This document shows, piece by piece, positions 1 to 62,801 of a DNA stretch of 64,000 nt (within the stretch, counting starts at the first letter, position 1; every line of letters starts with the position of its first letter). The stretch is from the NCBI RefSeq assembly GCF_964355755.1, contig NC_092678.1, forward strand, positions 5,410,422 through 5,474,421. The letters run 5' to 3'. Made by a program: the position numbers and the translations under genes. Source of the DNA: Antedon mediterranea (Eukaryota > Animalia > Echinodermata). The notes below the pieces were generated by a model that made no database searches, had not been told where the DNA came from, and saw only the letters and a list, made by a program, of their open reading frames with translations.

Positions 1-708
1 TAAATAATCTCTTTTAAATATTTTTTAAAAAGTCATGTTCTTGTGCAAGTATTACAGCTTTTACCACTAGACAAAACATTTCAGTTGGCAAACTCTGTTT
101 ACACAAGGTATTTAATTTAATCCATGCTTATATAGCGCCCTCTATAAGGTCCCATATTATATCATAGTTATTCTAATGAATTATTCATAACTTCCTGCTT
201 TAATTGGATAGGAGAAAAAATAATGCATCCCAGGACCACACTCTATAAGTCATGACTATGAATGGATGATTTTTGGGAGCAGGAATGCTTGTAGACCAAA
301 CCCAGTCCCGTTTTGATTCCGATCAATCAGGAAATCATTATTAATCCTCATTACATTATAAAGATTTCAGTCAACTACTTTTAACATGACTATTTCACAG
401 GTAAATCTTCTGATGGGGAAGAACATTCAAAGGCACCCACATCACAGACTGTTGACTCCATGAAAGAAGGTAATAACATTTTAGCGTTTAAATGACACAT
501 TAATGTAAGGAATACTTTTTTCACACACTAATAGTGCTCTGCATTGCTTGTGATACCTCTTGCCATGTAATGCTAAACTTGTTGTTGCTAACATAATTTG
601 CTCTGTTTCACAGTTGAGACCTCTCACACAGAAGTACAAGGGGCATCAACATCACAGTATAAAGGTCTCAACAAATGTGGTAGTTTCTTTTATTTTAATA
701 TCAATTAG

Positions 709-2565
709 TGTCACGAACTCCTCTCACGTATGTTTCCGAGCGGTTGAAAATACTTTAGGAACTCCCTTGTGACATAAAAGTATACACACAAAATCCACAA
801 AGTTGTAAAATAACTCAAAAACAAAGCTTTAATTTCAATCAACTTCAACTTTCAACAATCCAGTAAGCACTTTAAATAACAGCTTCACAATGACTTTACA
901 ATATAACATCCAACCTCTAATCCAACCTCTAATCCAACAACCTTACAATAGTTTACATCCCTTTATATACAAGATGCTCCTATCCTTCTAGATCATTCTT
1001 TATACTTCTCATTATTACATGATTACAGTTTCTATTAATAGCACTTCTGGAATGTTCTTGATTGTTCTTATTAATTATACATGGTTTATTAAATCAAAAC
1101 ATCTTATTCTAGAATGTTCATGTAAATACTATGTTACTCTATATGTTAGGGAATGGTAATTTATTACACTCCCTCCTCTTTCTGAGCTCAAAACTCTTTC
1201 TTGGAGTTTTGAGGGGCAAGTATACACGGACGTGGCAAAATTTAACCCACTCCTAGTCTATGAAACTTAAATACGCCATAATAACATACAACATAATTAT
1301 TAATAATTACTAATAATGAACAAACAATATTCATGTAAATTTGTCGGAATGGTTCACTAATTATTACTGACATAGGAATCATAAAATCCTTAAATTTAGT
1401 TTTATACTTTGAGGCTTTACAATACTCTGTCAACGAAATATCATGTGAAAATTTCAAAACACTATTACTGCAATGATATAAAACCAGTAATTTCTCTATG
1501 GGTTCTGTCTGGTGTTTAGTAAAAACATGCCTAAATAAAATTCCGTCCTTACAGACCGTCATATCTTCCCGACATAAACCTTCTTTCCTTTCAATATCTT
1601 CCCGATGTAAACGTTCTTGGTTATCCATCATCTGCTGCATCAGAAGACTCTGTTGTTGTATTTGTTGCTTCATTAACAACACTAAAAAGTCTATACTGCT
1701 GTACACTTTACCGGATATTGTTGTTGATTGTTTATCAGCCATATTTTAAATCTGGATGAGGGTCTTGTTACTAGTTAATCGTAGTTACCGAGACGTTCAC
1801 AAGTCTACTGTTCCAAATAAATAATGTACTGTTCTTAAAACAATGTTTGTGTTCTTACGATTAAACAAAACGTAGCACCGCGGCTTCCGTAAAATATCAC
1901 AGTATTGTAAGTACCGCTTTCACAAAATATCAATAAAGTACAGTTGATCCTAAAACAGCCACCAATCTATGGCAAAATACAGTAGATCAAACTGCTACCA
2001 CAAAATATCACAACAGTACTGTAGATAAATACACAGTTAAGTCGAACAGTAGATCGAAATAACCGCTGCCACCAAATTAGGCTGAACACCGCTGCCACCA
2101 AATTATGTCACGAACTCCTCTCACGTATGTTTCCGAGCGGTTGAAAATACTTTAGGAACTCCCTTGTGACATAAAAGTATACACACAAAATCCACAAAGT
2201 TGTAAAATAACTCAAAAACAAAGCTTTAATTTCAATCAACTTCAACTTTCAACAATCCAGTAAGCACTTTAAATAACAGCTTCACAATGACTTTACAATA
2301 TAACATCCAACCTCTAATCCAACCTCTAATCCAACAACCTTACAATAGTTTACATCCCTTTATATACAAGATGCTCCTATCCTTCTAGATCATTCTTTAT
2401 ACTTCTCATTATTACATGATTACAGTTTCTATTAATAGCACTTCTGGAATGTTCTTGATTGTTCTTATTAATTATACATGGTTTATTAAATCAAAACATC
2501 TTATTCTAGAATGTTCATGTAAATACTATGTTACTCTATATGTTAGGGAATGGTAATTTATTACA
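709..2565 (-). mobile_element. Non-autonomous (internally deleted) Gypsy-type LTR retrotransposon in an intron
   Basis: Direct repeats 709-1168 and 2106-2565 (460 bp, TG...CA). 5-bp TSD ATTAG at 704-708 and 2566-2570. Minus-strand PBS TGGTGGCAGCGGTG (2087-2100) and PPT (1169-1182). ORF 1242-1742 fuses a gag-like N-terminus to integrase-like remnants (EPFRQIYMNIV). The paralogous intron at ~36323-36343 is the empty site. Confidence 0.92.
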
Positions 2566-4451
2566 ATTAGTATTTCACATCATAAGATCTGTTATGCTTT
2601 GTTTAATATCTTGATATATTTCTAGATTTATATGATTTCTTTGTTGTAAGTGATGATGGTGAATGGGAAAAAAGAGTAATAAGAGAGCTGAAAAAATTAA
2701 GATCTGATGTCACTTGCCTAAGTCAAACAGACTGGAACCCTTCACTTATTGACGCAGAAAACATGTCAAACCTTTCAGAAACATGTAAAATGGTATTAGT
2801 GGGATTTACATCAAACCCTATTACAGGTTTTTCAACTTATATTGCTAACCTACTGGTTCAACAATCGACTCGGTCAAAGAATAAAAAACTACAACTTATT
2901 ATAGCAAGAACAGAAAAAGGTGTTGTCATACCACCTTACTTTGGCGGAGTATCTGTTAGCAACAGTTGGGAAAAGGATTTCTATACAAAGATCCTCAACA
3001 CATTAGATGAAGAAGGTAGAGTTACTCCATACCTATAACAATTCTTTTTAATTCGCCATAGTAGACTTCCAAGCCATATTTAACAATATATACACATGTT
3101 CATCTTGCACTAAAATGTTGTTTAACCTTGTTTTATTATTACATTTTTAGCTCCATATGATTTCTATGTTGTAAGTGATGATGGTGCTTGGGAACAAAGT
3201 GTTATAAAGGAGCTTCGAAATCGACAACCAAATATAAAATGCCTAAGGCGCCAAGAAAAGATTCCTTCATATGAAAACTTGCGAAATTTTACAAAGAAAT
3301 GTAAAACGGTTGTAGTGGGCTTTACATCAACTGGACCACATACTCATATTTCAAGAGAAGTTGTAAAACATATGCTTAACCAAAAAGAAAAGACAACAGC
3401 ACAACTGATTGTAGCAAGAATAGACAAGCATGTTAGATTACCCCTAAGCTGGCAAACATTATATATTTGCAACAGTTGGGAAGATGATTTTTACAAAATG
3501 ATCCTGAATACACTAAATGAAATACGTAAGTTTATTTCATATCTAGCAATATTTTGATCTTCATAGCTTGATGTCATAATCCATAGCAAAATTTAAACTT
3601 GCAAGCAAGACCAAATCATATTATTAATCAAATTACAATATATTTATGAAAATAAATTGAAAGATTTTTAAACAGAGTATGCTGGAGATTATAATGGTTT
3701 TTGTTTCATTTTGGGCTTATTAATTTTCTTTTTTCCCAAACGCATCCAACAGGGAGAAACTTACCGGATGGATAAACTATTATGCTTATAATCTTAGAGC
3801 TTAGGGGGTGGATTAGAAAGACTCGTGAGTTATAACTGTGATACTAGGATACTAGGACCGGATTGAACCTATTTAAAAATTAAATAATCTAATATTTGTA
3901 TAAACATAGGTATTCCCATGAAAGCATCAACAAAGGATCCCAAAAACGAAAATTGTGCTTTCAATCATTCAACTTTTAAGAGATTGAAAGAATTTTTTCA
4001 GAGAAGATTTTGCGCCATATTAAGATGTATTGGAAGGGGATCTATAATCTTTCATCTTTTTGTAAACGATGGCAACAGATTAAAGGCATTATGGGAAAGT
4101 CATGTAAAGAAAGAGTTGGATAAAGAACTTGAAGCAATATTGGATTGTTCTGGATGTGAATTAGAAACAGATATAGATGCACATGATTACAAGGTTGTTC
4201 TCAGAAAACTAATGGTAAAAAGTACGTGAGTTGATTTTTTTTTAAACACCATCTATTTTTATTATGTCCTAATTGTAAGATGAGATATATTTATTGTGCG
4301 CTTTTTTATAGGTTTACATTAATTTTTATCTAAATTGTTTCTTAATGGACCAGAAACCTTATATAATATTAAAAACGAATGACTAAATTTATCCAAAAAA
4401 ATTTTTGACAAAGACGATAAATCCATTACTGTTACTAAAAGGCAAACATTT

Positions 4452-5474
4452 GTGGTGAGGGCAACTTGTTTAGATAAAAGTGATACATGTAATGTAGTTG
4501 CTACTCTGATAACTCCATCAGGTGAACAAACTGCCACTGAGGTAGAAGACATGGGAAATGGAGAGTATAGAATAAAAGGAAGATGTGACGAGGAAGGTGA
4601 CTGGAAGATGAAGGTCATGGCTGGAGTGGAACACATCAAAGGAACACAAGTTAATATCAAAGTGGAACCACTAGGACTTGTACATACAATTGATAAAATA
4701 GCAGACCACAAAGTAGATAAAAAATACTCAATAACGGATGTAGATCTATATAAAGATGGTTGTATCTTAGTATCAAGTCTCTCTAATGAGTTACTCAAGT
4801 TTAATCAATCAGGTGAATTTGTTGCCAATATTCAATTGGCACACAATGTTAGAGTCAATAAAATGTATACAATGGTTAATGGTTGCATTATGTATAGCGA
4901 CACAGAAGGAAAGAGGGTAGTAATGTGTAATGACAAATTAGAAGAAATCAGTCAATTTGGTAAAGGAATATTGAAACATCCAAGTGGGTTGACGGTAAAC
5001 AATGAAAAAAGAGTTATGCATGTTGCAGACTTTATTGATCATTGTGTGTTTAAATTTGATATCGATGATGGAAGGAAGCTGGGTGAGATAGGTTTTGAGG
5101 ATGGAGAATTGTATTATTCACGTGATGTCAGTTTAACCAAGGAAGGTAATTTATTGGTTACTGATTGGGATAATCATAGAATACCAATGTTTGATGCCAA
5201 TGGTACATTTGCCAAAACATTTGTAAGTGAAGGTGAACAAGATGGAAAAGTCAGGTATCCCTGTGCTATAGAAATGGACAGGGATGACAACATAATAGTA
5301 GCTAGTGAAAACAAAGTACAATTATTTGATGAAAATGGGGTTTTCATCAAACGAATAGATGGCATAAATGATGGCATTAATAGTCCATGTGGAATCAGTG
5401 TGATATCCAATAGACCAAGGAGAGTAGCCATTGCAAATGGTGGAAAGAATAATGTGAAAATATTTAATTACTAA
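4452..5474 (+). CDS. Filamin + NHL-repeat beta-propeller coding segment (TRIM2/3/71-like C-terminus), copy 1
   Basis: Filamin motif (TPSG..EVEDMGNGEYRI...HIKG..V.I.V) followed by NHL blades (HPSGLTV, VTDWDNHRIPMFD, PCGISV). Confidence 0.85.
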   Translation: MVRATCLDKSDTCNVVATLITPSGEQTATEVEDMGNGEYRIKGRCDEEGDWKMKVMAGVEHIKGTQVNIKVEPLGLVHTIDKIADHKVDKKYSITDVDLYKDGCILVSSLSNELLKFNQSGEFVANIQLAHNVRVNKMYTMVNGCIMYSDTEGKRVVMCNDKLEEISQFGKGILKHPSGLTVNNEKRVMHVADFIDHCVFKFDIDDGRKLGEIGFEDGELYYSRDVSLTKEGNLLVTDWDNHRIPMFDANGTFAKTFVSEGEQDGKVRYPCAIEMDRDDNIIVASENKVQLFDENGVFIKRIDGINDGINSPCGISVISNRPRRVAIANGGKNNVKIFNY

Positions 5475-9103: not shown

Positions 9104-9638
9104 ATGTCAACAGACGACCTAACATTTGCAGACTTCCTTTCAGAATTAAGTAATGAGTATGAAGGTGAAAAAAAATTTTGGCTGAAATTGTTGCTATTCA
9201 ACCACTGTTCAGGAGCATTGTTAGGCAGAGACGACATCCAAGCACATGAGCTGTTTAATGAGCTTGAGGAAAAAGGTTACATTACTTTTGAACCATTAGA
9301 TGTAGAAGTTCTAGTGGACATTGCTAAAGTAACAGAGCAGAAGAAGGCTTTAGACCTAATAGAGAAGCTTAAAAATGAGCAAGTCAATAAGAAAGAAGAC
9401 GACTTTACCAATGGTAAACCAATAACACCATTTCGCAAAAACCTTTACAATGCTTTAAGACAAAATTCAAAGAAAGTACCAAAAATTGCTGCTGCCTACC
9501 GCCTTGGACATAAAGAATATAAGAATATTTGGGATCTTGTATTTGAGCTGGAAAAGGACAAACGTCTGCAGGATGAAAAGGAGTCAAAGGAAAGGTTTGC
9601 AAAACAACTCGACAAAGATGCAGGAGACATTTTGCTCG
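9104..9638 (+). CDS. Tandem death-effector-domain (DED)-like exon, copy 2
   Basis: F.DFLSELS...LKLLL..H...ELFNELEEKGYI...VEVL.DI fits the DED helical pattern; a second, degenerate repeat reads ITPFRKNL...WDLVFELEK. Confidence 0.7.
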
Positions 9639-9939: not shown

Positions 9940-12840
9940 ATCTTTATTCAAAAATGAAAACAACAAATTTACAAAAAAATTCATAAAATATAGCAGCATT
10001 TAGGGACGCATGCGTCCCATGCTGAATTGCATTTCATGATAACATTAAAACAAGTGATAACAATTTAAAAAAAAAAAAAAAGGATCGAGGGGCTTAACTC
10101 ACAAATTAAATTCGTTGATTAAGTTAATCAAATAAGGCAGAGGACTGTTACTATGACGCACTGTATTACAATTGACATTGCGAATCCTGTCGGCATTACG
10201 GGTGTTGTATTTGTGCACAACATTACCCCTGGAAGGAAGAAGTGAGAACAATTTAGACTGAGGATTCAAGATGGATTTAGCAAAGGCAATACATAGGTCC
10301 CGACGCCTGTGACTCAGACCATCCAGGCGCAACGTGACCAAAGCATCGTCATAACCAGTATAATTCCTACCCAAAACAATTCTCCAGGCACGTTTCTGGA
10401 CCCGTTCGATTGCATTAATGTGATCAATTGTAAGGCCACCATTCCAAACGGGTACCGCATATTCTAAAACTGGTCGTACCGCACCTAAATACACTGACAC
10501 AAGATCATCAGAAGGAACACCACGACGTTTAAGCGTTCTCAAAGAGAAAAGTTTGCTATTACCTCTTCTAACTATGTAATCAACATGTCTGTCCCACTTT
10601 AAGTTGGACTGAATAAAAATGCCAAGCAGTTTAACACAATCACGTGTGAAAATAACCTGATCATTAAGGATGATATTAGGAGGAGGAGGGGGTCTGTTAG
10701 AAAAACAAACGTCCATAATGTGACATTTTTTAGGGTTAAGTCTCATGTTGCTTTTTTCGGCCCAAGCAAGAAGACTAGATGCACAACCAGGAAGTAACGA
10801 AGATTGACTAATCTTACGGGATTCTACAAATGTAAGATCATCAACATATTTATAGTGTTGGATCAGTTGATCATTGTTGTTACCGGAAGCGTCATTAATC
10901 ATTGCCGAAAAGACAATTGGTCCTAATTTAGTGCCCTGAGGCACTCCAGCGTTAACAACAGCTTTATCGGATAAGGTGCCCTTATATTTAAGTTGATGAA
11001 CACGGCAACTCAGAAATTCAGCAATCCAAGCGATATTAGCAGAGGGAACATTCATGTCCCACAGACGCTGCACAGCTATAGAATGATCAACAAAAGATCG
11101 AATGCTTTGGAGATATCCGTAAAAAGGATAGATGAGACAGCACGAGGAGTATCAGCGTGACGATGTAGCTTATTCAAAACACTGATAAGGCAATGGTTGG
11201 TAGAGACTCCTTTCAAATTACCGAATTGCATTTTATCCAACTTAGCCTTCATTGCTGAGATGGTGTCAATAGCAACGAAATGTTCCGCAATCTTCGCGAA
11301 ATGATCCGTAATGGCAATAGGTCTCATATTGCTCAAGGAAAAAGGAACATTGACAGCTTTGGGAATTGGAACCACATAGGCCCGCTTCCATTGGTGTGGA
11401 ACTACCGATTCTTGATATGAACAATTAATGACATGGCAAAGAGGACCGGAAAGTTCATAAGCAAAAGATTTAATAAACTTGGCAGATATCAGATCGGTCG
11501 GGTCCACACGAGGTGCGTAGTTTGACCTTATTCAGTTGCATGAAAACTTCCCAAGGCTCTACTTGTTGAGGTTTATTCGATGGAAGAAAGGCTGGTAATA
11601 TCTTTCTGTCTAATGCCTCAAGTGAATCATTGACATTGGTCAAATGAGCACAAACACTATCAGCAATAACTTTTTCAGCGTTATCCAACACGATATCTCT
11701 TTGTTTACATCGCCCCGAGAGGGTACGAATGTGTTTATGCCACTCAGCGGAAGACATACCTTTTAGGTTCCTAACATTTTTAGCGTAGTAGTCCTTCATG
11801 TCTGCACGTATAACTGTATTTACCTTGTTACGAAAAAATCTCCACAGGTGTTCCTTGTTTTTTGCAAAGGCGTCTTGTCTCTTTTTAATTAATGATTTCG
11901 TCAGAGCGGAAACCCAAGGTTTGTCAGTCGGATGACGTTTCACAACACGTTTCGGGAAGAACGCATCAATAGAATCCTGGAGAGTATCGTAGAATTTTGT
12001 ACATTTTTCTTGTGCTCCAGAGGCACTAAAAATATCACTCCAGTCGTGATCAATGATCCACTGTCCATATTCACATATTTTGCTATCAGGCATCGGGCGG
12101 ACGATCTGTTTACTTGACTTATTGCAAACGCGAACATTTGCAACAGGCTTCAAAAGAACACAATTATGGTCACTCAGACCTAAGGGTGGTAATATAACAG
12201 GAGTATTATAATGTACACTCACGTTTGTGATTATCTTGTCCAAAATAGCATCCTTTCTGGTGGGTTTATTAACAATCTGTGTCAACGATTTAGATAAAAT
12301 ACCTCTTAGCTCAAGACGATTAAAGTCACCCATGATAATAATGCCGGTCAAAGGCTGCTTAGTGAAGATCTGGTCAATTGTTGATGACAAGTGATCGATG
12401 AGGGAATTGTGCTTTCCGGAAGATAGTAAACAACACCAATAACCAACCTGGCAATAGACCTAGGTAGTCGTCGCGGACGAGCTACAACCCATAGGCATTC
12501 GGTATCGTTTGACACAATTACGTCTTTAAGGATATTACAGTTGATGTTGTCTTTAACGTATAAGGCGACTCCACCACCACGTCATGCATCACGGGAGTTA
12601 GAATGAAGCGTATATCCGTCAATACTTAAACATTCCACAGGATGGTCAGAAGCAAACCAAGATTCAGTAATCGCAGCAATGTCAACATTATTATGGTCTA
12701 ATATAAGTTCAAATTCCTCAAGTTTATTGTTCAGTGATCTAGGGTTGCTGAGCAAAAAAGATGGAAGAACAAACTCACCATTTTTTTTGTACGAGCACAC
12801 CGTTTTTATATTAACGAGATTGTTCAGGTTTTTGTCTTAA
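9940..12840 (-). mobile_element. CR1/L2-clade LINE ORF2 (APE endonuclease + reverse transcriptase), frameshifted, in an intron of copy 2
   Basis: Endonuclease motifs NPRSL, ITESW, GDFN, LDKI, SDH; RT motifs RPIAIT, DISKAFD, GVPQGTKLGP, YVDD; split over ORFs 12582-12800, 11470-12390, 11076-11507 and 10099-11073. Minus-strand AATAAA near 9943-9948; ends approximate. Confidence 0.88.
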
Positions 12841-15279
12841 TTATGCCAAGCAAAATGAATTTCCTAGTGTACCAATAAAATATCAGGTATAACAGGTCTA
12901 ACTCATATATCAGTCTATTAGCTCTAACACAAAAACAGGTAATAATTGTTACTTTTTTTAAAGTAGTAGGCCGGTTAAACATTTATTATTCAGAATGCTT
13001 TTTATTGAAGGATGACTTAGAATTTGGACAGTCTAGTCCTAGCTTAAATTCGGTTTTCAGAGATGCTTTGGGAAAGAAATTGTAAAAATCTGTTTATCAA
13101 ATTTTTGTACACAGTAGATGAACAAGAACATTCAGATGCGTCCACGGAGAGTGTTGATCTCATGGAAGGAGGTAATTTTATTTTTCAGCATTAAAATGTA
13201 TCCCACAATTGACTATTTGATATCACCCTGTGCTCTACATTTATGGCCAGAGATATCCCTTGCCTTTTTATTCATCAACAAATTTTTAAAATTATTCAAG
13301 TTTACTACTTTAATCTTTAAAAAAACCACTCTAATTAAGACATTATAATTACTTGTGTACCATAAAGCAATAACAGCAACACTGGCATTCTTTTAAAGAT
13401 ACACATAGGCCTACAGATGTGCAAGGTGTATTCACATTACAGTCTGAAGATCCTGAAGATGGTAAACATTTTAAATTTTCATGAAAAGTATTTTAAATTA
13501 CCTGGGAATCAGAAAAATACACTAAAACATTGTTTAATCTTGTTTTATTATTACATTTCTAGCTCTTTATGATTTCTACGTTGTAAGTGATGATGGTCTT
13601 TGGGAAAAAGGTGTGATAGAGAAGCTGCAAAAACGAAATCCAAATATAAAATGCCTGAGTCGCCAAGACAAGAAAACTTCACTTGATAGAGTAGAAAACT
13701 TGGTAAATCTTACAAAGATGTGTAGAACGGTAGTAGTGGGCTTTACGTCAAAAGTACATAGTCATGTTTCACGAAAAGTTGCAACACATATGGTTGACCA
13801 AAATGTATTTGAGAACAAGAAAACGAGCACAACTGATTGTAGTAAGAATAGACGAGGATGTTAGATTACCCACAAACTTGCAAACATTAGATATTTTCAA
13901 TAGTTGGGAAACTGATATTTACAAAAGGATCCTGAATACACGAAATGAAATACGTAAGTTTATTTCACATCTAGCAATATTTTGATCTCCATAGCTTGAT
14001 GTCATAATCCATAGCAAAATTTAAAACTTGCAAGCAAGACCAAATCATATTATTAATCAAATTACAATATATTTATGAAAATAAATTGAAAGATTTATAA
14101 ACAGAGTATACTTGAGATTATAATGGTTTTTGTTTCATTTTGGGCTTAATCATTTTCTTTTTTCCCAAACGCATCCAACAGGGAGAAACTTACCGGATGG
14201 ATAAACTATTAGGCTTATCATTTTTAGAGCTTAGGGGGTGGATTAGAAATACTCGTGAGTTATAACTGTGATACTAGGATACTAGGACAGGATTGAACCC
14301 ATTTAAAAATTAAATAATCTAATATTTGTATACACATAGGTATTCCAATTAAAGCAACAACAAATTATCCCGAAAACGAAACTTGTGTTTTCAATCCTTC
14401 AACTTTTAAGAGATTGAAAGAATTTTTTCTAAGAAGATTTTGCGCCATATTAAGATGTATTGGAAGGGGATCTATAATCTTCCACCTTTTTGTAAACGAT
14501 GGCAGCAGGTTGAAGATGCTATGGGAAATTCATGTAAAGAAAGAGTTGGATAAAGAACTGGAAGCAATATTGGATTGTTCTGGATGTAAATTAACAACAG
14601 ATATAGATGCACATGATTACAAGGTTGTTCTTAGAAAACTAATGGTAAAAAGTACGTGAGTTGATTTTTTAAAAAACACCATCTATTTTTATTATGTTCT
14701 AATTGTAAGATGAGATATATTTATTGTGCGCTTTTTTATAGGTTTACATTAATTTTTATCTAAATTGTTTCTTAATGGACCAGAAACTATATATACTATT
14801 GAAACGAATTACTAAATTTATCCAAAAAAAAGTTAAACTTTGCCAATTTAACAGTTGCAGTAGGGACCCTTATAGGAAACTTTGTAATTTTGTTTACAAC
14901 TATTTTGTGAATATATGATGAAAAAGTGCAATAACAAAAACATTCATCAATCATCAATTTCGTTTAGGTGCAAGCAGCCAAACAGCAACCGAAGGAGCCA
15001 TTGCATCAATCAGTACTACAGTAAGTTTTCAATTTATCTAACATGCCGATGGACATGGCATGCAACAAAAGCCAGTTTCGGACTTGAAATAGACACAATT
15101 TAACCCTTTTCAATGCAATCAGGATAAAAAATATTCAGATTTGTGTAAATAACCAAAGTTCTAAGAAAAATCGACCCAAAATCTTTGAATGCACACGAGA
15201 ATTGTCACCATGACCACAGTTAGTTAGTCCCAAAATTGGAAACTCGTTAATAACTAACTATAAATACAACATTTTACAG

Positions 15280-16521
15280 GTGTCAAATCAAGAAATGCAT
15301 ACTAGATGTGAAGACCATCCAGATAACGAAGTACTATTGTTTTGTGGAACATGTAGCAAACGTGCCTGCAAGAATTGCCAACATTTTGTGCAGTGCTATA
15401 AAAAACATGATACTTTACCAATGATATACCTGTCATCAACACTCGTTATCATTGATAAAGACGATAAATCTATTACTGTTACTAAAAGGCAAACATTTGT
15501 AGTGAGGGCAACTCGTTTGGATAAAAGCGATGCATGTAATGTAGTTGCTACTCTGGTAACTCCATCAGGTGAACAAACTGCCACTGAGGTAGAAGACATT
15601 GGAAATGGAGAGTATAGAATAAAAGGAAGATGTGACGAGGAAGGTGATTGGAAGATGGAGATCACTGCTGGAGTGGAACACATCAAAGGAACACAAGTTA
15701 ATATCAAAGTGGAACCACTAGGACTTGTACATACAATTGATAAAATAGCAGACCACAAAGTAGATAAAAAATACTCAATAACGGATGTAGATCTATATAA
15801 AGATGGTTGTATCTTAGTATCAAGTCTCTCTAATGAGTTACTCAAGTTTAATCAATCAGGTGAATTTGTTGCCAATATTCAATTGGCACACAATGTTAGA
15901 GTCAATAAAATGTATACAATGGTTAATGGTTGCATTATGTATAGCGACACAGAAGGAAAGAGGGTAGTAATGTGTAATGACAAATTAGAAGAAATCAGTC
16001 AATTTGGTAAAGGAATATTGAAACATCCAAGTGGGTTGACGGTAAACAATGAAAAAAGAGTTATGCATGTTGCAGACTTTATTGATCATTGTGTGTTTAA
16101 ATTTGATATCGATGATGGAAGGAAGCTGGGTGAGATAGGTTTTGAGGATGGAGAATTGTATTATTCACGTGATGTCAGTTTAACCAAGGAAGGTAATTTA
16201 TTGGTTACTGATTGGGATAATCATAGAATACCAATGTTTGATGCCAATGGTACATTTGTCAAAACATTTGTAAGCGAAGGTGAACAAGATGGAAAAGTCA
16301 GGTATCCCTGTGCTATAGAAATGGACAGGGATGACAACATAATAGTAGCTAGTGAAAACAAAGTACAATTATTTGATGAAAATGGGGTTTTCATCAAACG
16401 AATAGATGGCATAAATGATGGCATTAATAGTCCATGTGGAATCAGTGTGATATCCAATAGACCAAGGAGAGTAGCCATTGCAAATGGTGGAAAGAATAAT
16501 GTGAAAATATTTAATTACTAA
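15280..16521 (+). CDS. Terminal exon of copy 2: B-box2 zinc finger, filamin, NHL repeats
   Basis: CEDH...FCGTCSKRACKNC...C...H is joined directly to filamin; NHL part nearly identical to copy 1; acceptor TTTTACAG ends at 15279. Confidence 0.88.
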   Translation: MSNQEMHTRCEDHPDNEVLLFCGTCSKRACKNCQHFVQCYKKHDTLPMIYLSSTLVIIDKDDKSITVTKRQTFVVRATRLDKSDACNVVATLVTPSGEQTATEVEDIGNGEYRIKGRCDEEGDWKMEITAGVEHIKGTQVNIKVEPLGLVHTIDKIADHKVDKKYSITDVDLYKDGCILVSSLSNELLKFNQSGEFVANIQLAHNVRVNKMYTMVNGCIMYSDTEGKRVVMCNDKLEEISQFGKGILKHPSGLTVNNEKRVMHVADFIDHCVFKFDIDDGRKLGEIGFEDGELYYSRDVSLTKEGNLLVTDWDNHRIPMFDANGTFVKTFVSEGEQDGKVRYPCAIEMDRDDNIIVASENKVQLFDENGVFIKRIDGINDGINSPCGISVISNRPRRVAIANGGKNNVKIFNY

Positions 16522-26930: not shown

Positions 26931-26979
26931 GCTATCGGCCTTTAACCCATATGCCGATATTGTTGGCCTTTTTGCTGTC

Positions 26980-48400: not shown

Positions 48401-48635
48401 CTTAATTAAATCAAATTTGAGGTACAAAAGAAAAACAGAGTAAATACATTTATAAACAAAAACATTAATTTTATACAATATTTTTTTTATGGAGATCTTT
48501 CAATAAACCACCATCAGAGGACTGATCCCGTCCACACGCAAAGACCAGCCGCGCCGTCTAATCGTCGTCACTGTATTATTGACTTTATAATTGTCATACT
48601 ATTTTAATAATTCTTTATTTTTACTATTCCAGAAA

Positions 48636-51600
48636 ATGTCAAAAGACGAATTTGCAGATTTACTTTCAGATATAAGTAAAGAATATGATGGTGATGAATA
48701 TTTTCAGTTAAGATTTCTGTTAAAGGACCACTGTTCTGGAGCATTATTAGGCAAAAAAAACAACACAGGGCAGACATTATTTAATGAACTCATTGACCGA
48801 CGTCACATTTCTTATCCCCCTACAAATGTGGAGATTCTGATTGAAATTGCTAAACTGACAGAAAAGCCTCAGGTTTTAACTTACCTTAATAATTTTAAAA
48901 AAGAACATGAAAATGCAAATGAAATCAAGGCCAAACCAATTACCGAATTTCGTAGAAATCTTTATAAAGCTGTAACAACAAATGCAGTTGAAGTATCAAG
49001 AATTGCTGCTGCGTACCAGCTGGATCATCATAATTATGGGAATATTTGGGATCTTGTATTCAAGCTTGAAAGAAGCCAACAGTTGGTGGATACAAAAGTG
49101 TCAAAGAAAAGGTTTGCAAAACAACTTGACAAAGAAGCAGGAGATATTTTACTCGGTTGGTAACTTTTTTATATAAAACTATTAAAATAAAATATTAAAC
49201 AATGAAGGTGCAGGCAAAGTAATATTCCTACTGTCCATTTAATGACAAGGATATATAGGGCTTAATGCAAACATATCTATCCTTACATTTTACAGGTAAA
49301 TCCTCTGGTATAGATGAACAAGGCAGTTCTGTGTCATCCACACTGCAGTCTGGTGACCACATGGAAAGAGGCAATATTATTTATTTATCAAAATGATTTA
49401 AGTCAACACTGGTTCTTATAATAATATACAGTAAACATTTTCCAGTTTTCATTTTATTGAAGGACGTTTAGAATTAGGCCTTATCAAAAGATTGGTATAA
49501 AACTACTATGTTCACAGGTGAATCTTCTGGTGTAGATCAACAAGAACATTCCAAAGCATTTGCATCCCAAAATGTTGATCCCATGGAAGAAGGTAAAATA
49601 ATTATTATCATTATCATTCCTATCATTAAAATACAGGCCTTAACTATAACTTATATATGGACACATGAAATCCAATGATTTCATCAATTACTCTGCATTT
49701 GTGGTTTGGTATCTAAATAAACATTTTTAAAATCTTATCAAGCCATGCAACAATAAAATTGGTTTGTTTCACAGGTGGGTCTTAAGTATTAAGACAGTAC
49801 TATTTTTTTTACTTCAATCCATGTCAAGTTCCAAGATAATTCTTGTTCATCATCATTTCTATCATTTTTATCAAAATGTTTTTAAAAAGAATAAATAATT
49901 TCTTTTTACATTTCCAGAACTACATGTTGAGTCCCATCATACAGACGTACAAGATGCATTCAAATCACAGTCAAAAGAATCTATTAAAGACGGTAAAATT
50001 GTACTCTACAAGAGTCACATTATTAATATCATCATCATTATCATTTTAAGTCACGTCAAGTGACCAAGCAGTTAAGGCAGGGGCGCCACAAACCATAGCT
50101 ACAGTATACAATCAGCACAGGTTCAAGGCCCTCCTCGACCATTGTTCTGGTGGTTGAACAAGTCTACTTGGATAAGGACTTAAAACAGAAGGTCCAGTGT
50201 ACACATCTTTTGGAAGAGTAGGGGGTTACCCCGGTGTACTGGTCCATCTTAGCCCTGTTGATGAATGAGCGCTGTTTGGTGGCAGCACTTGACACAAAGA
50301 GAATCTTCGGGGAGAATAAAGTTGTATGTGTTGTATGGTTATTCCCCCACATTTACATTTAAAAGCACAGGTTGATGTTTAAACTGTTTTAATGTTACAT
50401 TTTTAGAACTACATGATTTATATGTTGTCAGTGATGATGATAAATGGGTAAAAAAGACTATAGGCGATCTGAAAAGAAGAAAACCAGATATTCAATGCCT
50501 GAGTCAAAAAGACTGGAACCTTTCATTTAGTGCAGTTGGAAACATGTCAAATCTTACAAAGCAATGTAAGATGGTATTAGTAGGTTTCACATCACGACTA
50601 AAAACTAATGTTTCAAATTATGTTGCTGAACTTATGTTTGAACGATGGCTATATGGGAATAAAAAACTACAACTTATTATAGCAAGAGTAAACAAGGATG
50701 ATGTCATACCAGACTCCTTCAAAGCAGTACCTGCTAACGACAGTTGGGAAAGTGGTTTCTATGATATGATCCTGAACACATTAAATGCAGAAGGTAAAGT
50801 TTCTAAATCTCTTTTTAATAATGTTAACTGTCCCATCCCATACTGTAGAAGTCAAAATAATATTATTAAAAGTTATGCACATGTAAATATTTGCATGTGT
50901 TTTGTATCTTGACTTGGGTACTTGGATTATCAAATTAAAAATATCAATTCTCCTTTTTGTAAAGTATCAAATCAGATTATGATTCAACCAGTTATAATGA
51001 TTTTCATTACACTTTGTGTTTGATAAACAAAACAAACAATTAAATAATTCAATATCTGTATCATTTTAGTTATGAAAGTGAAAGTAAAAAAACAGAATTC
51101 AGAACATGAAATACCTCTTACTTCAAATGTGGAGCAACGGCAAGGCCTGGGAGCATATTTCAAACAAAAATTTGGAGCCTTTTTTGGAGGTCATGGAAGG
51201 GGGTCTATAATCTTCTACCTTTTTGTAAATGATGCCAGCAGTTTGAATAAGTTATGGGAAAGTCATGTCAAGAAAGAGTTAAAGAAAGATCTAGCAGAGA
51301 TATTAGGATATCCTGCAAGTGAATTGGAAACAGAAATAGATGAGCATGAATACCAGGATGTTCTCATAAAACTAAGAGGAAAGGGTAAGTTGAATTTTGA
51401 AGCAAAACTAGAATTACACTTAAAAAACTCTTTTTTAGGCATTTACTGCCAGGAAAAGTAATTTCAGCGTAATAAAAAAATGGCAATTTTAAATGTACAT
51501 ACCGCAGAACAATAATACATGTCGTTTACAGGAACAAATAAATAAACAGGGTGATTTATGTACTAAACTAAAATTAGCACCCTGGGAATTACTTCTGAAA

Positions 51601-54600
51601 GAGAAACTTGTCACAAAATGAGACCAATTGTTTGAGTCAAACTAATTTGTGGATGGGAAAGAGGATGGGTGCAAAGAGGAAAAATTTTTTAATATATTCT
51701 TTATCCTTATTAATTGTTTTCATGTTTTACAAATAATATACCTGTACCACTCACAGTAAAGCACTGCGATTTAATACTTTGTTGAAACTATCACCGTCAT
51801 AGTCGATTGAAATAGTAAAGTACATGTAAACGATACACCACTACGACGTTTATATTTTTTTGCAATTACAGTATTAATTAATACAAACATTGAGAAGCAA
51901 CTGTGAAAAACCTCTATTCGGGCCAAATTATAAATTCTCTTTAATCGTCAATAAATAATTATTTAACTCAACTGAATTAGTAGGCCTAATGGTTTTCAAT
52001 TGTTTCTTAGAGCCAATTTATACTTAAGTTGGTTCCTTAACCCACCACCTTCGTCGTACTGTAGGCCTCTCCTATACTGGCTTTACAACGCTACTCATGC
52101 CATTGAAGGTGGTGTGGGTGGTGGTTTAACTGCAATAATAAAGTTGATTGTACATTCAAAACGTTACAGTAGCTCATTATCCGTTTAAAAAATACCCAAC
52201 CTCTGCAGCACAGATTGAAAGAAATTAATCGAATTGTGTACTTGCTTTTGTGTTATTACGACGTCTGAGGGAATAGACGCTTGTGGAAGAGAGATTGGAA
52301 TTGGGATTCCATTTATAGCTAAGCAATACGTTTATACAAATATATATATTAAATCTATCAAAATACTATTTTTTAAAGAAAATCAGCTTGTCTTCAACAT
52401 AAATGATGCTGTACTAGACAGTGTATACCTCGATCGAAAAACACCCCTATTTGGGGCAAATCGTTGAATCTAAATTCGTTTTAGTTGTCAATAACTAATT
52501 ATCTAACTCAACTTAATAGTAAACAGGATTACATTAGGTGGTTAAAATCAGTGGCGAACGTATGAACCAATTTTATATACCATCGAGTAAAAATTCTAGA
52601 AGTAACGCGCGATTTACTGAATTTTGCCGTAACGCAAATTTATATTTATAGATGCTTATATTTGAAAAGTGGAAATTATTGCATTTTGATACAAGACTGT
52701 TTAACTTTAGTGGAATGTTATGTGAGGCGTGTGGCGCAGTGTGTTGAACGTTTGACTACTGATCGTGAGATTGAGGTTTGAATACAACTCTCGCCGCATT
52801 GCTTGTATCCTGTGTCAAATCTTTTTCTCTCCGCAAATTGTTTTCACAGAACTCGCGAAGGGAGCCCATGTGTGTATACTTCCACTGTTTTAAAATGTTC
52901 CGATAAAAACATTAAAGAACTAAAAAGCAAGTGATGAAAATAGGGTGCATAGCATAAACAAACAATAAAAAAGATAAAAATTCGTCGCCATAATCGCTAG
53001 TGGACAGTTTTATTGGCCGGACATACCTTGACCCTTTCTTACTGGAAGTCAGTATACTGGTTATATTTCTGGATAGTTTTATCGGTAATGATGCAGGCAC
53101 GATGCAGTTATCTATACTGGTATCAGCCGGCACTGCACTATACAATGCACCTTACTAGAATATCGATAATTATAACAAAACAACCTTTACTGCAAATCTT
53201 GTTTAGGTGCAATGAGCCAACAAGTAACTGAAGTTGTAATCCCAACAGCAAGTACTATAAGACATAAGCCTACACAGAGTCTTGCTTCAGTAAGTTTTTA
53301 AATGTATTCACTACTACCATTATTTACAGGTAGACTTACTGTATATGATGCAAAAAATCACCTCTTCACACAGAGCAGCCTGCCAGGCAGGAATAGATAA
53401 CAGTGTAATTGATGTACAAGCTATTGAATTTTAACAAAATACATATGCAGAAGCGTTATATAAATGCACAGTATAAGTCAATCAGCAAACTATTTACGAA
53501 ATTGTCAGTGACATATAAACAAAAACTCATAATACTTGCATGCACACTAGAAATTTTCATCCCCGAGTCCTAAATCAAAATACTGAATTCTTAATCGTTT
53601 ATTATTTTACAGATGTCAAGTCAAGAAGTGCAAGGTACCTGTTGCCAAGACCATCCAGACCACACAGTAGAAAGATTTTGTACAACTTGTAACAAAAGAG
53701 TATGTAGGAGATGTGTTAAGGGTTGTTATAATGATCATCATGGTATCGTTAAAATCAGTAATGCTATAGAAGCATTTAACAAACGAGTAACTGAAGTGAT
53801 CAGGTCAGCTGAAGATGTCAAGCAAGAATTAGAAACTACATTTCATTCTATAATGGACGACAAAGCAGACTTTGAATCACATGTAAAGATGATCAGAGAT
53901 GTTATTAACATGCATAAAGAAACTATTGTTTCTAAAGTTGAAGAAGAAACAAAAAAACTATTGTTGGATCTTGAAGATGTATGTAAGCAAAGGAATGATG
54001 CCATCGAAGGTCAAGTGAAAGAGCTAGAATCACATCAAATGGAAGTGCAAAGTCTGAAGAGGTCAAGTTTAGAAACAATGAACAAACCAGAAAAGACAAA
54101 AACACTTGATGATATCAATACAAATATCCATGCAGTCAACCAAAACATAAAGGAAATGAATTCCAGATACTCATCTTGTGGAAATAATCTCAAACCAAAC
54201 TTCACATTTAATACCGAACTGGATGATGCTCTTGCAAAAGGCCTTGGTGACATCACAAGTATTGATAGTAGGTTCATCATTAACAAAGATGATAGATCCA
54301 TTACAGTATCAAAGGGACAAACATTTGAAGTGAAAGCAGAAAGTCTGGATAAAAGTGATAGATGTAAAGTAGCGGCTACTCTGATAACTCCATCAGGTGA
54401 AAAGATTGCTACGGAGGTAGAACACATGGGAAATGGAGAGTGTAGAATAAAAGCAAGATGTGATAAGGAAGGTGATTGGAAGATGGATGTCATTGCTGGA
54501 GTAGCACACTTTAAAGGATCACCAATGAAGATCAAAGTGGAACCACTAGGACTTGTACATATCATTAACAACATAGATACACACAAAGAAAATAATGACT

Positions 54601-55337
54601 ATAAAGTATCAAATATATTGTTAGACTCTAAATGTTGTATATTAGTATCAAGCAACTGTAATGAGTTATTGAAGTTTACAAAATCAGGTGAATTTGTTGC
54701 AAATATTCATCTGGCGCAACATGCTAACGTCAGTAGAATGCATAACATGAGTAACGGTCACATTGTGTACAGTGATGCAGGAAGACAGATCGTTGTGATG
54801 CTTAATGATAAATATGAAGAATCTACTCAATTCGGTGAAGGGGTATTGAAACATCCGAGGGGGTTGACGGTAAACGATGAAACACAAGTTCTGTATGTTG
54901 CAGACAGTGAGGCTAACTGTGTCTGCATGTTTACTATTAATGATGGCAACCTTCTGGGAAAGATAGATTTGGATCAATTGAAACGTCCATGTGATGTTAC
55001 TTTAACTAGGGAAAATCAGCTAATGATTACTGATATTTTAAATCATAGAATACAAATGTTTGATGCAAATGGTACCTTTATTAAAACACTTGTAAGTGAA
55101 GGTGAAGAAGATGGAAAGGTTATATCTCCCTGTTATATAGTAACAGACATGAATGAAAACATAATAATATCCAGTCAGAAAAAACTACAATTATTTGACA
55201 AAAATGGTGTTTTCCTAAAACGAATAGATACTCTCGATGATAAGCTGACATATCCGTTTGGAATCGTTGTACTTTCCAACAGACCACAAACAATAGCAGT
55301 AGCCGATTTAAACAGTGTTAAAATTTTGAATTACTAA
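48636..55337 (+). CDS. Array copy 4 (intact, ~1084 aa): DED-DED, TIR, TRADD-N-like, B-box, coiled coil, filamin, NHL
   Basis: Exons 48636-49155, 49296-49370 (GC donor), 49518-49592, 49918-49992, 50407-50793, 51070-51384, 53207-53289 and 53613-55337 total 3255 nt in frame. B-box CQDH..FCTTC...CRRC...H followed by ~150 aa of heptad-rich helix. Confidence 0.82.
50055..50350 (+). mobile_element. tRNA-derived SINE in an intron of copy 4
   Basis: A-box-like GTGACCAAGCAGTTAAGG and B-box-like GGTTCAAGGCC; body shared with 26765-26930. Confidence 0.55.
52725..52880 (+). mobile_element. tRNA-derived SINE-like fragment
   Basis: GTGGCGCAGTG (A box) ... GGTTTGAATAC (B-box-like). Confidence 0.4.
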
Positions 55338-55999
55338 ATAGTCTCTTAAAATCTACAGTATATAGATTTAAAAATTTGGCAAACTGCTCAAGAGGAATTG
55401 GTGGGTGAAAAGCAACATAAATTGGAAAAGTTTTCATTTTAGAACTATAGAATAAACATTATGCTACCTTTCATGAAAATAATATATTTAAAAACGTCCA
55501 ATCAAATGACTAGGAATAGTAAATATTAATTATGACAATTTGATAGCTAATACAAATAATGAATAATGTCATGAGTTGGATGGTGAGAATATTTCATTTG
55601 GAAAATTGACTGTTCTATTTTTAAAAGATTTATAGATAGCATGAACAGCAATTTGATCATTGAATACAGATCATTCAAAAACCTCGTGCGGCAAACATTC
55701 TCAAAATTCTCAAAAAAATTAATCAATTAAGTAATAAACTAATTGAAAAAATAGATGTACTGTTGGAACTATCTTTATTCTAAACGTAATGTGAATAATA
55801 ATGTAAGAATACTTTTACTGTACTTATACACCTAAGATCAATATCTAAATATATACATTTACATCTACATGTTTATCAGTGTGTGTATTAAACTCATAAA
55901 ATCAACAAAAAAGCTTGTTTGTATGTTACTTGTTGTCAAAAGTTAAAACTGTACATAAATCTTTTCTACACCCTTCATACTAAATTTGTTAAGACAAGA

Positions 56000-56290
56000 T
56001 GTTTTATGAGTTATAATATAAAGAAGATCATGATATAATAGAATGAGTGATGCTATAGAAGCATTCAACACACAAGTAAACTGAAGTGATCAGGTCAGCT
56101 GAAGATGTCAAGCAAGAAATGGAAACTATATTTCATTCTATAATGGATGAGAAAGCACATTTTCAATCACATGTAAGGATGATCAGAGTTATTGAAGTGC
56201 ACAAAGAAACTATTGTGTCTAACGTTGAAGAAGAAACAGAACAAATATTGTTGGATCTTGAAGATGTATGTAAGGAAAGAAATGAAGAAT
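56000..56290 (+). pseudogene. Orphan fragment of a B-box end/coiled-coil exon (paralog of ~53720-53995), frameshifted
   Basis: VIRSAEDVKQEMETIFHSIMDEKA vs VIRSAEDVKQELETTFHSIMDDKA; extra base at ~56080; no downstream filamin/NHL. Confidence 0.75.
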
Positions 56291-60155: not shown

Positions 60156-60392
60156 AAAATTATTTTTAGTACATGTTCTCAATGTTCTTAGTGTTATATA
60201 ATATATATATAATAAAACTGGTGTAGAAGTTAATATAATCTTTACAGCATTCAATAATGTATGTATTATAAAATTCATTAGGGCCTATAAATTCCATTTT
60301 AAAATAAAATTTTACTGTGAGGTTATCATTGTTTTGTAAAATAATTACTATCATACTAAAAAATAAATATAAATTTTGTATTATTCCAGAAA

Positions 60393-62801
60393 ATGTCAAC
60401 AGCTGATTACAGATTTTCAAAATTCCTTTTAAGTATAAGTAATAAGTATAATTGTGAAAAGTATTTATGGCTGAAGCTTTTGCTATTTGACCACTGTTCA
60501 GGAGAATTGTTAGGCAGTGACAACGACTCAGGACTTTCGTTGTTTAATGAGCTTGAGGAACAAGGTTACATTTCTTACAAACCACTGGATGTTGAAATTC
60601 TAGAGGACATTGCTAAAGTAACGGAACAGAATGCGGCCTTAGAGCTAATAGAAAAGTTTAAAAATGAGCAAGCCAACAAGAAAGAAGACAACTTCACCAT
60701 GGGCAAACCGATCACAAAATTCCGCACAGACCTTTTTAAAGCTTTAAGAAAAAATACAAAAAAAGTACCAGACATTGCTGCTGTCTACAAGCTAAGACAT
60801 GAGAATATTTGGGATCTTGTATTTGAGCTGGAAAAGAGTGAATGTCTGGTGGACACGTGGGAATCAAAGGAATTGTTTGCTCAACAACTCACCAAGGATG
60901 CTGAAAATATTTTGCTTGGTATGTACTTTATCATAAATAATGGATTTCAATAATAATATGACACAGAGAATCAAATATTTCCTGCGCACTGTACACAAAA
61001 CCCACTGAACTTCTTCACATAGATAAACCTGAAGGGTATCATTTCACCCACAACTAAGTCTTGAAGTAATAAAACAATTAATCTATATAACAGAAAATGA
61101 AAACTCTTTTTTTTAAGGTGTCACATCAAGCACTAAGCCAGCATTATACAAGTCTGACATGCTTGATATCGTAAGTGTTCAATTTAGCCAACATGAGTTA
61201 CCTTTCATATTTCTGAATTTGAATATTTAAGAAATATAATCCTAACTCACCACCATGGTTAAGATTTTTGTTTGCATTTCCAAATTCAATTTCTTTATAA
61301 AATGGAATAAGTAAAACATTCCTTAAATCTATTTAGTTGCAGTAGTGTACTGAGCCACTCTGGGAGTTTTGTTGTAGAGATATTATACCCATTTGTTTAA
61401 ATGTATATATTGGTACCTTTTTTCTGTGATTGTTATTATGTTTATACAATAATACTACAATATATATTATCTTTTATTTTAAAGATAAATAAACAGTTGG
61501 CAAACAAGGAAATTGAAGCAGAAGTGGATAGATTTGAAAACACTCATCTGGATTCAATATATCCATCTTATCCTCAGGTTTCTCCAACTAACTTATTAAA
61601 GAGAGTGTACCAACGTGGGAAAGATTTCATGAAGAAGAACACCGATAATAAAGAAGACCAACTATCAGTAAAGAAATCAGATGAAACTCAAAACTTGTTA
61701 ATAAAAGAAATCATTCAACTGCCAACTATTGAAAAATTAACCCTTAATAGAGAAGATACATGCATAACAGTCACAAAGGGACAGCCGTTTGCAGTGAATG
61801 TAACAAATGTGGATAAGAGTGATGCACACAAAGTAACTGCTACTTTGATAAACCCATCATGCAAAAACATTCCCACTGATGAAGTAGAATACCTAGGAGA
61901 GTATACAATAACAGGTAGATGTAATGAGGAAGGCAATTGGAAGATGAAGATCACTGCTGGAGTAGCACACGTCAAAGGATCACCAGTGAATATCGAAGTG
62001 GTACCACTGGGACTTGTACGTACCATTGACGACCTAGAAGAACACAAAGTATCAGATGTAGTATTAAACTCCGATGGTTTTATATTAGTAGCAAGCTATT
62101 GTAATCAGATTCTGAAGTATAATCAATCAGGTGAAATTGCTGCCAATGATGAAGTGACACCGAACACTAAGTTGAATAAGATGCACAAAATGGGTAATGG
62201 TTACATTTTGTATAGTGACACAGAAGGGAAGAGAGTTGTAATGTATACTAACAAACTTAAAGAAATAAGACAATTTGGTAAAGGAATATTGGAATGTCCA
62301 ATGGGGTTGACAGTAAACAACAAAACAAATTCTATGTATGTTGCAGATGAAAAACTTAATTGTGTATTCAAATTTGATGTTGATGATGATACAAAACGGG
62401 ATGAGATAGGTTCTAAAAATAGAGAACAAGCTAAACTGAATTGTCCGTGCGATGTCACTTTAAACAAGGAAGGTCATTTAATGGTTACCGACTCTGGTAA
62501 TCATAGAATACTAGTGTTTGATGCAGATGGTACCTTTATTAAAAGACTTATAAGCAAAGGTGAGGAAGATGGGAAAGTTATCCATCCTAATGCTATAGTA
62601 ATGGACATGGATGAAAACATAATAGTAACGAGTGAAAATAAAGTACAATTATTTCATAAAAATGGTGATTTTATAAAACGAATAGATGGCATAAACGACA
62701 GTATTGATAAACCATGTGGAATCAGTGTGATCTCCAATAGACCAAGGAGAGTAGCCATTGCAAATGGTGGAAAGAACAATGTGAAAATATTTAATTACTA
62801 A
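60393..62801 (+). CDS. Array copy 5 (intact, ~631 aa): DED-DED linked directly to filamin and NHL (no TIR, TRADD-N-like domain or B-box)
   Basis: Exons 60393-60918, 61118-61170 and 61485-62801 total 1896 nt in frame with canonical sites. Confidence 0.8.

Follow-up and report, generated by a model that had tools for sequence, protein, structure and literature searches.

A stretch of 64,000 nucleotides (nt) from the crinoid Antedon mediterranea (assembly GCF_964355755.1, contig NC_092678.1, positions 5,410,422–5,474,421, forward strand; called the window below, positions being counted from its first letter) was analysed and found to contain five paralogous multi-exon genes, head-to-tail and all on the + strand, as located by tblastn of the four large open reading frame (ORF) pieces of copy 4 against the window. 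The genes appear to be fusions of a DED, a TIR and a likely TRADD-N domain with a RING-less TRIM-NHL body, and their products are likely cytosolic sensors; this reading is given a probability of about 0.6. The array spans 62 kb and its make-up differs between the five copies: frames are intact in three of them (copies 3, 4 and 5), copies 1 and 5 are reduced forms, and copy 1 is cut by the window start, its DED exon being expected upstream of the window.

Reading frames: The ORF pieces were said in the initial annotation to join at splice sites into single frames, and the rebuilt lengths of 3237, 3255 and 1896 nt match exactly; copy 4 was modelled with eight exons (3255 nt, ATG to stop, no internal stops), copy 3 with seven (3237 nt, open from ATG to stop) and copy 5 with three (1896 nt, open from ATG to stop). 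The partial model of copy 1 is open across 758 codons, two TIR exons included, and copy 2 is open once its frame-broken TIR exon is skipped. The DED exon, the TIR-like exon and the exon with the GS(I/V)..L..LW motif (GS-motif exon, TRADD-N-like) have conserved AG acceptors and GT donors with introns in phase 1, and all N-terminal exons are of phase 1-1. At the copy-4 junction 49370 the donor is GC instead of GT; skipping of this exon leaves the frame intact (3180 nt). The acceptor of the NHL exon is strong and in phase 0, and the TRADD-N exon joined straight to the NHL exon was rejected as out of frame (phase 1 donor vs. phase 0 acceptor). Alignment of the introns gave a conserved mini-exon, L3, bounded by TTTAG and GTAAGT, of 53, 80, 83 and 53 nt in copies 2, 3, 4 and 5, respectively; its length is 2 mod 3 in four of four copies, so that phase 1 would be converted to the phase 0 of the NHL-exon acceptor. 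A downstream alternative acceptor, TCAAG/AA (conserved in copies 2 and 4), was dropped after L3 had been found. Linker mini-exons of two other types, L1 and L2 (57–75 nt), lie between the DED and TIR exons; the eight linkers upstream of TIR measure 75/75/75, 75/66, 69/66 and 57 nt, each length being divisible by 3, and 12 of 12 mini-exons are frame-preserving despite the length differences between copies. From the acceptor to the first Met of the NHL exon, 35 codons are open in copy 3 and 48 in copy 5, the two leaders being unrelated in sequence; with the background stop frequency of the window DNA (0.072 per codon) such open leaders have a calculated chance of ~0.07 and ~0.03, respectively. 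Judged by these phases and frames, the join of the exons into one frame exceeds chance expectation; such reasoning from the sequence, together with a related protein model, and not RNA, is the basis for the claim of a single transcript. The uniform phase 1-1 of the N-terminal exons means that duplication (copy 1), loss (copy 5) and skipping (broken copy 2) keep the frame, and frame-neutral duplication, loss and skipping of such exons is the likely way in which the family diversifies.

DED exon: A DED-type N-terminus, as originally proposed, was recovered by Pfam DED (PF01335) in five of six first exons, the best match (E 5.4e-7; 30.2 bits; profile 1–82 of 82) lying below the cut-off of 35.9 bits; caspase-8 DED in the PDB gave weak matches (E 0.025–0.057). 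The further proposal of a tandem DED is supported only by half, the first ~90 residues matching DED; for a second member there is no support: the following ~75 amino acids (aa), the second half of exon 1, gave no match to the first half (hhalign probability 0.1), to Pfam DED or to solved structures. Designed pentatricopeptide repeats led the PDB profile of the DED exon and were taken as helical-repeat noise. No longer protein was retrieved with the DED exon in a word-based search.

TIR exon: The TIR exons of the window alone gave no Pfam match; among 17 homologues, Pfam TIR_2 is matched by 11, in no case up to its cut-off, and PF01582 by one, above cut-off. A family profile (four window copies and eight homologues) was run against the PDB and gave TLR3 (E 5e-5) and TLR2 (E 7e-4), the alignments falling on the TIR domains of both; TIR proteins make up 11 among the 19 PDB sequences listed, and the top six are all TLR TIRs. 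The AlphaFold model of the copy-4 TIR (predicted local distance difference test, pLDDT, 69; predicted template modelling score, pTM, 0.71) has a flavodoxin-like fold; in VIA-align, ranks 1–19 are all TIR-containing (MyD88, Z 12.8; MAL, Z 12.5) and CheY-like receivers start at Z 10.4, which is a modest margin. Foldseek alone on the same model did not separate TIR from CheY and other flavodoxin-like folds; the language-model neighbours of the exon are TIR clusters. With the TLR3/TLR2 profile matches and the 19 best rows of the modelled fold, the assignment of this exon to TIR, first made on its letters, is well supported. As to the catalytic Glu that marks the NADase subgroup of TIR domains, visual inspection of the window copies showed no conserved Glu following strand C. 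The profile search with this exon gave only 21 proteins among 1.84 billion representatives; of 20 looked up, 14 are from Anneissia japonica, four from Antedon mediterranea and two from hemichordates. Elsewhere, members of this TIR family are fused to NACHT-LRR (P0011, Antedon, another genome locus), to a kinase-like region (Anneissia), to a SKI2-like helicase with DSHCT and to CARD (Saccoglossus); the proteins concerned are P0011, P0018, P0025 and P0026. Such fusions suggest that, in ambulacrarians, this TIR has been widely shuffled between domain architectures.

GS-motif exon: TRADD-like_N (Pfam PF20694) was matched in one of four copies (E 0.019, below the cut-off of 23.7 bits) and in the RefSeq protein P0014 (E 0.048), the matches sitting on the conserved stretch G(R/K)GSII..L.VND...L..LWE. 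The language-model neighbours of the exon are TRADD-like_N clusters (0.92–0.93; 206–219 shared features). Together with the sub-threshold Pfam matches, these neighbours make the TRADD-N identity that had been put forward for the exon probable.

TRIM-NHL body: NHL repeats were matched with 27.2 and 33.7 bits (Pfam cut-off 20), filamin with E 2e-4 to 5e-4 (below cut-off) and, in copy 4, zf-B_box with E 0.0048 (below cut-off). Relatives of the NHL body in the PDB are Thin/TRIM32, TRIM2, TRIM71, TRIM3 and Brat (E 4e-26 to 2e-15); the B-box/coiled coil of TRIM3 was matched in copy 4 (E 7e-4, on residues 10–146). No RING Pfam match and no NACHT or NB-ARC match was obtained in any exon, and queries comprising the N-termini, RING included, of 16 TRIM-NHL proteins from crinoids and the full-length Anneissia protein P0052 (see below) brought up no RING segment in the window. 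The RING-less B-box/coiled-coil/filamin/NHL body, which had been ascribed to the family as a whole, is retained as TRIM-NHL-like, with no RING relic found, and its full form is restricted: B-box and coiled coil occur together only in copy 4, the B-box only in copy 2, and neither in copies 1, 3 and 5. In copy 3, their position is taken by a 24-nt tandem repeat (13.3 units; 38126–38445, +), which encodes (V/A)(R/K)TSVTEP-like octapeptides in frame within the last exon; a Pfam "Cornifin" match on copy 3 was discarded as a product of this repeat.

Proposed function: DED, TIR and TRADD-N serve as adaptors in cell death and innate immunity; signalling by DED and TIR domains proceeds through cooperative assembly, and the TRADD-N of vertebrates is a TRAF2-binding domain. 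In TRIM proteins, dimers form through the coiled coil, and assembly of higher order is promoted by the B-box. NHL propellers have RNA or protein as ligands, those of TRIM71 and Brat being known RNA binders. In the proposed mechanism, the long spliced form would be the main transcript, the coiled coil would dimerise as in TRIM proteins and the NHL propeller would be the sensing part; binding of a ligand by the propeller would cluster the adaptor domains via the NHL, coiled-coil and B-box parts, and the clustered DED, TIR and TRADD-N could recruit caspase-8/FADD-like, MyD88-like and TRAF-like partners, respectively, and so start death-fold/TIR signalling. With no RING, no E3 ligase activity of its own would be expected of the protein.

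Comparison with known systems: A close single-chain counterpart is an uncharacterised, automatic RefSeq model of Anneissia japonica, XP_033109932.1 (P0052; 1005 aa; "E3 ubiquitin-protein ligase TRIM71-like"), in which TIR, a TRADD-N-like stretch, RING, B-boxes, coiled coil, filamin and NHL stand in one chain. It aligns with copy-4 residues 251–493 (31–33% identity over TIR and TRADD-N) and is 44% identical to the copy-4 NHL exon; it shares with the array the ...NVK(I/M)FNY tail, the TIR family, the TRADD-N-like stretch, B-box, coiled coil, filamin and NHL, but has a RING and a first B-box (residues ~272–430) with no counterpart in the window, has no DED and is named by similarity only. Other proteins of Anneissia and of the TIR family combine TIR with B-box (P0013), TIR with the GS-motif domain (P0015) and DED with TIR (P0008). 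The order B-box, coiled coil, filamin, six-bladed NHL is that of the TRIM-NHL proteins (TRIM71/LIN-41, TRIM2, TRIM3, TRIM32/Thin, Brat); unlike these, the array is without RING and has N-terminal DED, TIR and TRADD-N modules. With NLR/STAND receptors the likeness is confined to the logic of adaptor, oligomeriser and repeat sensor and is an analogy, not membership; unlike them, the array has no NACHT/NB-ARC ATPase, and oligomerisation would rest on B-box and coiled coil.

Among published families, Kaur, Iyer, Burroughs and Aravind 2021 (PMC8195603) describe lineage-specific expansions of marine invertebrates in which the death-fold and TRADD-N parts are constant and the sensor or effector ends vary; TRIM ligase domains are among these ends, and the expansions are linked to retrotransposons. 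The authors also list coral proteins of the type DED+DED+TRADD-N+coiled-coil+filamin+propeller, and their table gives CARD+TIR+TRADDN-DEDD2 for amphioxus and DED+DED+TRADDN-DEDD2 for sea cucumber. The array resembles the DEDD2-clade expansions in the N-terminal death-fold and likely TRADD-N, in the coiled-coil/filamin/propeller (TRIM71-like) end, and in having many fast-changing paralogues with retrotransposons nearby; it differs in the TIR domain and the three Ser/acidic linker mini-exons between DED and TRADD-N, and in its crinoid host. No crinoid member was found in the searched part of the supplement text, eight crinoid accessions included. The array would be placed with the DED + TRADD-N expansions as described there (DEDD2 or NCOA6 clade), if the TRADD-N call is right. 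Zhang et al. 2008 (PMC2575513) provide a precedent for hybrid adaptor genes in the "direct connector" immune genes of amphioxus, in which death and TIR adaptor domains are likewise fused to each other and to sensors; their sensor ends differ (LRR, NACHT and others), and NHL and B-box have 0 occurrences in that paper. The combination had been put forward as one not known from any characterised protein, which is overstated in view of the coral proteins of Kaur et al. and P0052. Literature searches on the architecture, and on the species together with immunity, gave no description of this crinoid family. By architecture, the crinoid genes are best regarded as a lineage-specific variant of a computationally described kind, not as a new class; what appears new in them is the inserted TIR, the lost RING and the phase-adapter exon.

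Evidence against the fusion and the two-gene alternative: Several observations weigh against sensors encoded by long fusion transcripts. P0014 (223 aa, Antedon mediterranea; one of the 21 proteins of the TIR profile search), which is the only RefSeq model found in the window, is encoded letter for letter by 36562–36789, 36995–37312 and 37541–37663 and has the junctions of the rebuilt copy-3 model between TIR exon, TRADD-N exon and L3; it then stops 14 codons into the intron after L3. The closest annotated NHL-exon proteins, P0038 and P0039 (571 and 577 aa; 76% and 74% identity to the copy-4 NHL exon; same 26-Mb contig), comprise the NHL exon only and start with the MSSQE Met found at the head of the copy-4 exon as well, where the ATG stands right at the acceptor; NHL-exon-sized RefSeq paralogues number seven in all (P0038, P0039, P0041, P0042, P0044, P0046 and P0048; 568–582 aa). 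No protein of at least 315 aa with 100% identity to the copy-4 NHL exon was found, and no transcript evidence was obtained for the junction of L3 to the NHL exon; contigs of runs X5 (RNA by guess only) and X1, compared with 35400–55399, gave no intron joints for the family. For the family, the comparison yielded short X5 contigs within the NHL exon of copy 3 and one contig that fell, with 13 differences, on a DED exon; numerous other joints were repeat-driven. On the side of the domains, the TRADD-N matches are sub-threshold, the AlphaFold model of this part is poor (pLDDT 46), and its profile run against the PDB gave no solved TRADD, chance matches only; the BB-loop Pro-Gly of the TIR (box 2; position set by the TLR3 alignment) has lost Gly in five of five window copies and kept Pro in three of five, vs. 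(R/K)D..PGK in the crinoid homologues, which would make a degenerate adaptor surface and leaves the fold assignment unaffected. Copy 2 is frameshifted, copies 1, 3 and 5 are without parts of the body, and the TIR exons are near neutral (dN/dS, the ratio of nonsynonymous to synonymous substitution rates, 0.73–1.17). The immune function itself is something we infer throughout.

No fusion is annotated here, and a literal reading of the public annotation favours units of two genes each: a short adaptor gene running from DED to L3 with a retained-intron tail, as in P0014, and a RING-less TRIM-NHL gene driven by a promoter of its own, as the NHL-exon-sized paralogues and the MSSQE start of P0038 and P0039 would have it; the in-frame join would then occur only in a minor isoform or be left over, unused, from an ancestral fusion. 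Such an arrangement is considered unlikely, though it is the strongest of the alternatives. In all four copies, L3 has kept its GTAAGT donor and a length (2 mod 3) that fits the next acceptor; the NHL exons of copies 3 and 5 offer no Met over their open leaders, and copy 2 has GTG at the place of the copy-4 ATG; the adaptor and TRIM-NHL parts stand in a single chain in the Anneissia protein P0052. The fusion is further supported, as far as L3, by the junctions of P0014, and by the RefSeq model P0040, which uses the same phase-0 acceptor internally.

Selection and decay: Between copies, dN/dS was 0.39–0.53 for DED, 0.33–0.52 for filamin/NHL and 0.39–0.91 for the GS-motif exon, with dS mostly 0.2–0.9. 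At 0.33–0.53, the DED and NHL parts are to be regarded as constrained; the TIR exon, from its ratios, as relaxed or diversifying. That the array is mostly a graveyard of decaying, functionless duplicates, with frames open only through youth, is improbable. Decay may be seen in the frameshifted and LINE-bearing (long interspersed nuclear element) copy 2, in copies 1, 3 and 5, which have lost B-box and/or coiled coil or adaptor exons (copy 5 being without the TIR and TRADD-N exons), in the orphan DED exons and the stray coiled-coil piece, and the TIR dN/dS of ~1 and the retrotransposons of the cluster fit with it; yet three full frames of 632–1085 codons (stop included) are intact at a dS of 0.4–0.9 between copies, dN/dS is 0.33–0.53 for the DED and NHL parts, and all indels in the 12 mini-exons have preserved the frame. 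It is still less probable that these are classical TRIM-NHL RNA regulators (TRIM71/Brat type) of development or translation with adaptor domains serving assembly and not immunity. The nearest solved propellers (TRIM32/Thin, TRIM2, TRIM71, Brat) speak for it; against it, DED, TIR and TRADD-N are established death and innate-immunity adaptors, the partners to which relatives of the TIR are fused are NACHT-LRR, CARD, kinase and SKI2-like helicase, and a fast, copy-variable, lineage-specific expansion suits conflict genes.

Significance: If long transcripts of the fusion genes exist, the array would be a clean natural example of the assembly of an innate-immune receptor by exon shuffling, in which a phase-adapter exon couples one-domain exons of phase 1-1 to an older single-exon TRIM-NHL gene. 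The NHL propeller, an RNA binder in TRIM71/Brat, may have been taken over as a pathogen sensor. More speculatively, and doubtful at present, the genes might form a receptor class of the crinoids' own, in which the RING-less TRIM-NHL propeller senses a pathogen ligand, perhaps viral RNA, one binding event triggers the caspase, TIR and TRAF branches, and the phase 1-1 cassettes give a combinatorial repertoire. The reference annotation would miss the fusion, only the 223-aa fragment being found annotated and the close paralogues being NHL-only, and annotation-based counts of crinoid immune genes would then be wrong.

Table 1. Exons and related features of the array (window positions), followed by the content of each unit as found by tblastn.
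Feature	Position	Strand	Remarks
Copy 1 linker mini-exon L1	401..469	+	69 nt; aligned with L1 of copies 3 and 4; AG/GT, phase 1-1
Copy 1 linker mini-exon L2	614..679	+	66 nt
Copy 1 TIR exon a	2626..3015	+	
Copy 1 TIR exon b	3151..3525	+	tandem duplicate
Copy 1 TRADD-N-like exon	3910..4221	+	
Copy 1 filamin/NHL exon	4414..5474	+	weak acceptor; B-box, coiled coil and L3 deleted
Copy 2 DED exon	9104..9638	+	has start ATG
Copy 2 L1	13115..13171	+	57 nt
Copy 2 TIR exon	13563..13953	+	391 nt, 1-nt frame break
Copy 2 TRADD-N-like exon	14340..14651	+	
Copy 2 mini-exon L3	14968..15020	+	53 nt, phase 1 to 0
Copy 2 B-box/filamin/NHL exon	15280..16521	+	coiled coil deleted; GTG instead of ATG as first codon
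Orphan DED-like exon	22238..22753	+	without start ATG
Orphan DED exon	23078..23548	+	ATG lost; Pfam DED E 1.6e-4
Copy 3 exon 1, DED and helical region	35099..35633	+	
Copy 3 L1	35852..35926	+	75 nt
Copy 3 L2	36236..36301	+	66 nt
Copy 3 TIR exon	36398..36790	+	3' part contained in RefSeq protein P0014
Copy 3 TRADD-N-like exon	36996..37313	+	
Copy 3 L3	37542..37621	+	80 nt; same frame coded in P0014
Copy 3 last exon	37896..39665	+	open leader, 24-nt repeat, filamin, NHL propeller
Copy 4 exon 1, DED and helical region	48636..49155	+	DED at residues 6–90
Copy 4 L1a	49296..49370	+	75 nt, GC donor
Copy 4 L1b	49518..49592	+	75 nt
Copy 4 L2	49918..49992	+	75 nt
Copy 4 TIR exon	50407..50793	+	
Copy 4 TRADD-N-like exon	51070..51384	+	
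Copy 4 L3	53207..53289	+	83 nt
Copy 4 last exon	53613..55337	+	B-box, coiled coil, filamin, NHL propeller; 574 aa; ATG directly at acceptor
Stray coiled-coil fragment	56080..56286	+	79% identity to copy 4
Copy 5 DED exon	60393..60918	+	
Copy 5 L3	61118..61170	+	53 nt
Copy 5 filamin/NHL exon	61485..62801	+	
Copy 1 (tblastn)			two TIR-like exons, GS-motif exon, filamin/NHL exon
Copy 2 (tblastn)			DED, TIR-like, GS-motif, B-box and filamin/NHL
Orphans (tblastn)	22–23.5 kb		two DED exons
Copy 3 (tblastn)			DED, TIR-like, GS-motif, NHL exon
Copy 4 (tblastn)			DED, TIR-like, GS-motif, B-box/coiled-coil/filamin/NHL
Fragment (tblastn)	56.1 kb		stray coiled-coil piece
Copy 5 (tblastn)			DED and filamin/NHL only

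Relations between copies 1 and 2: The 3' halves of these copies are near-identical (intron 4222–4401 vs. 14652–14830, 94%; NHL exon dS 0.03, 4416–5471 vs. 15463–16518), and the two are set apart by a deletion removing L3 and the B-box from copy 1; the similarity suggests that duplication or gene conversion took place very recently. No TIR, TRADD-N or NHL exons follow downstream of the orphan exons 22238–22753 and 23078–23548 (+), which may be either relics or parts of an unrecognised gene.

Repeats and neighbouring ORFs: The window is AT-rich (G+C content, GC, 0.30–0.37), and its single GC-rich block (0.48), at 28–32 kb, is a retrotransposon. Mid-array, 27358–32310 (+), stands an uninterrupted 1650-codon gag-pol ORF of long terminal repeat (LTR) type with protease, reverse transcriptase, RNase H and integrase zinc domain; the element looks young, because its GC is 0.48 vs. 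0.32 in the surroundings, and is possibly active. Intron 1 of copy 2 holds a LINE remnant (10099..12459, –) with three broken ORFs (endonuclease, reverse transcriptase). An ORF with a GIY-YIG nuclease domain (25308–25820, –; Pfam E 4e-5, above cut-off) may be part of a Penelope-like element. The LTR element, the LINE and the GIY-YIG ORF sit in the cluster, retrotransposons thus being found between and inside copies. Very high-copy repeats occur at 42070–46738 and 51408–53408 (summed contig depth of thousands to hundreds of thousands, runs X1 and X5), one of them falling within the 2.2 kb that separate the TRADD-N exon of copy 4 from its NHL exon. An unrelated gene lies on the opposite strand at 42357–44910 (–): a 1196-nt X5 contig covers 44357–44838 and 42357–42576 and omits the DNA between, like spliced RNA; the 194-codon ORF 44326–44910 (–) gave no Pfam match.

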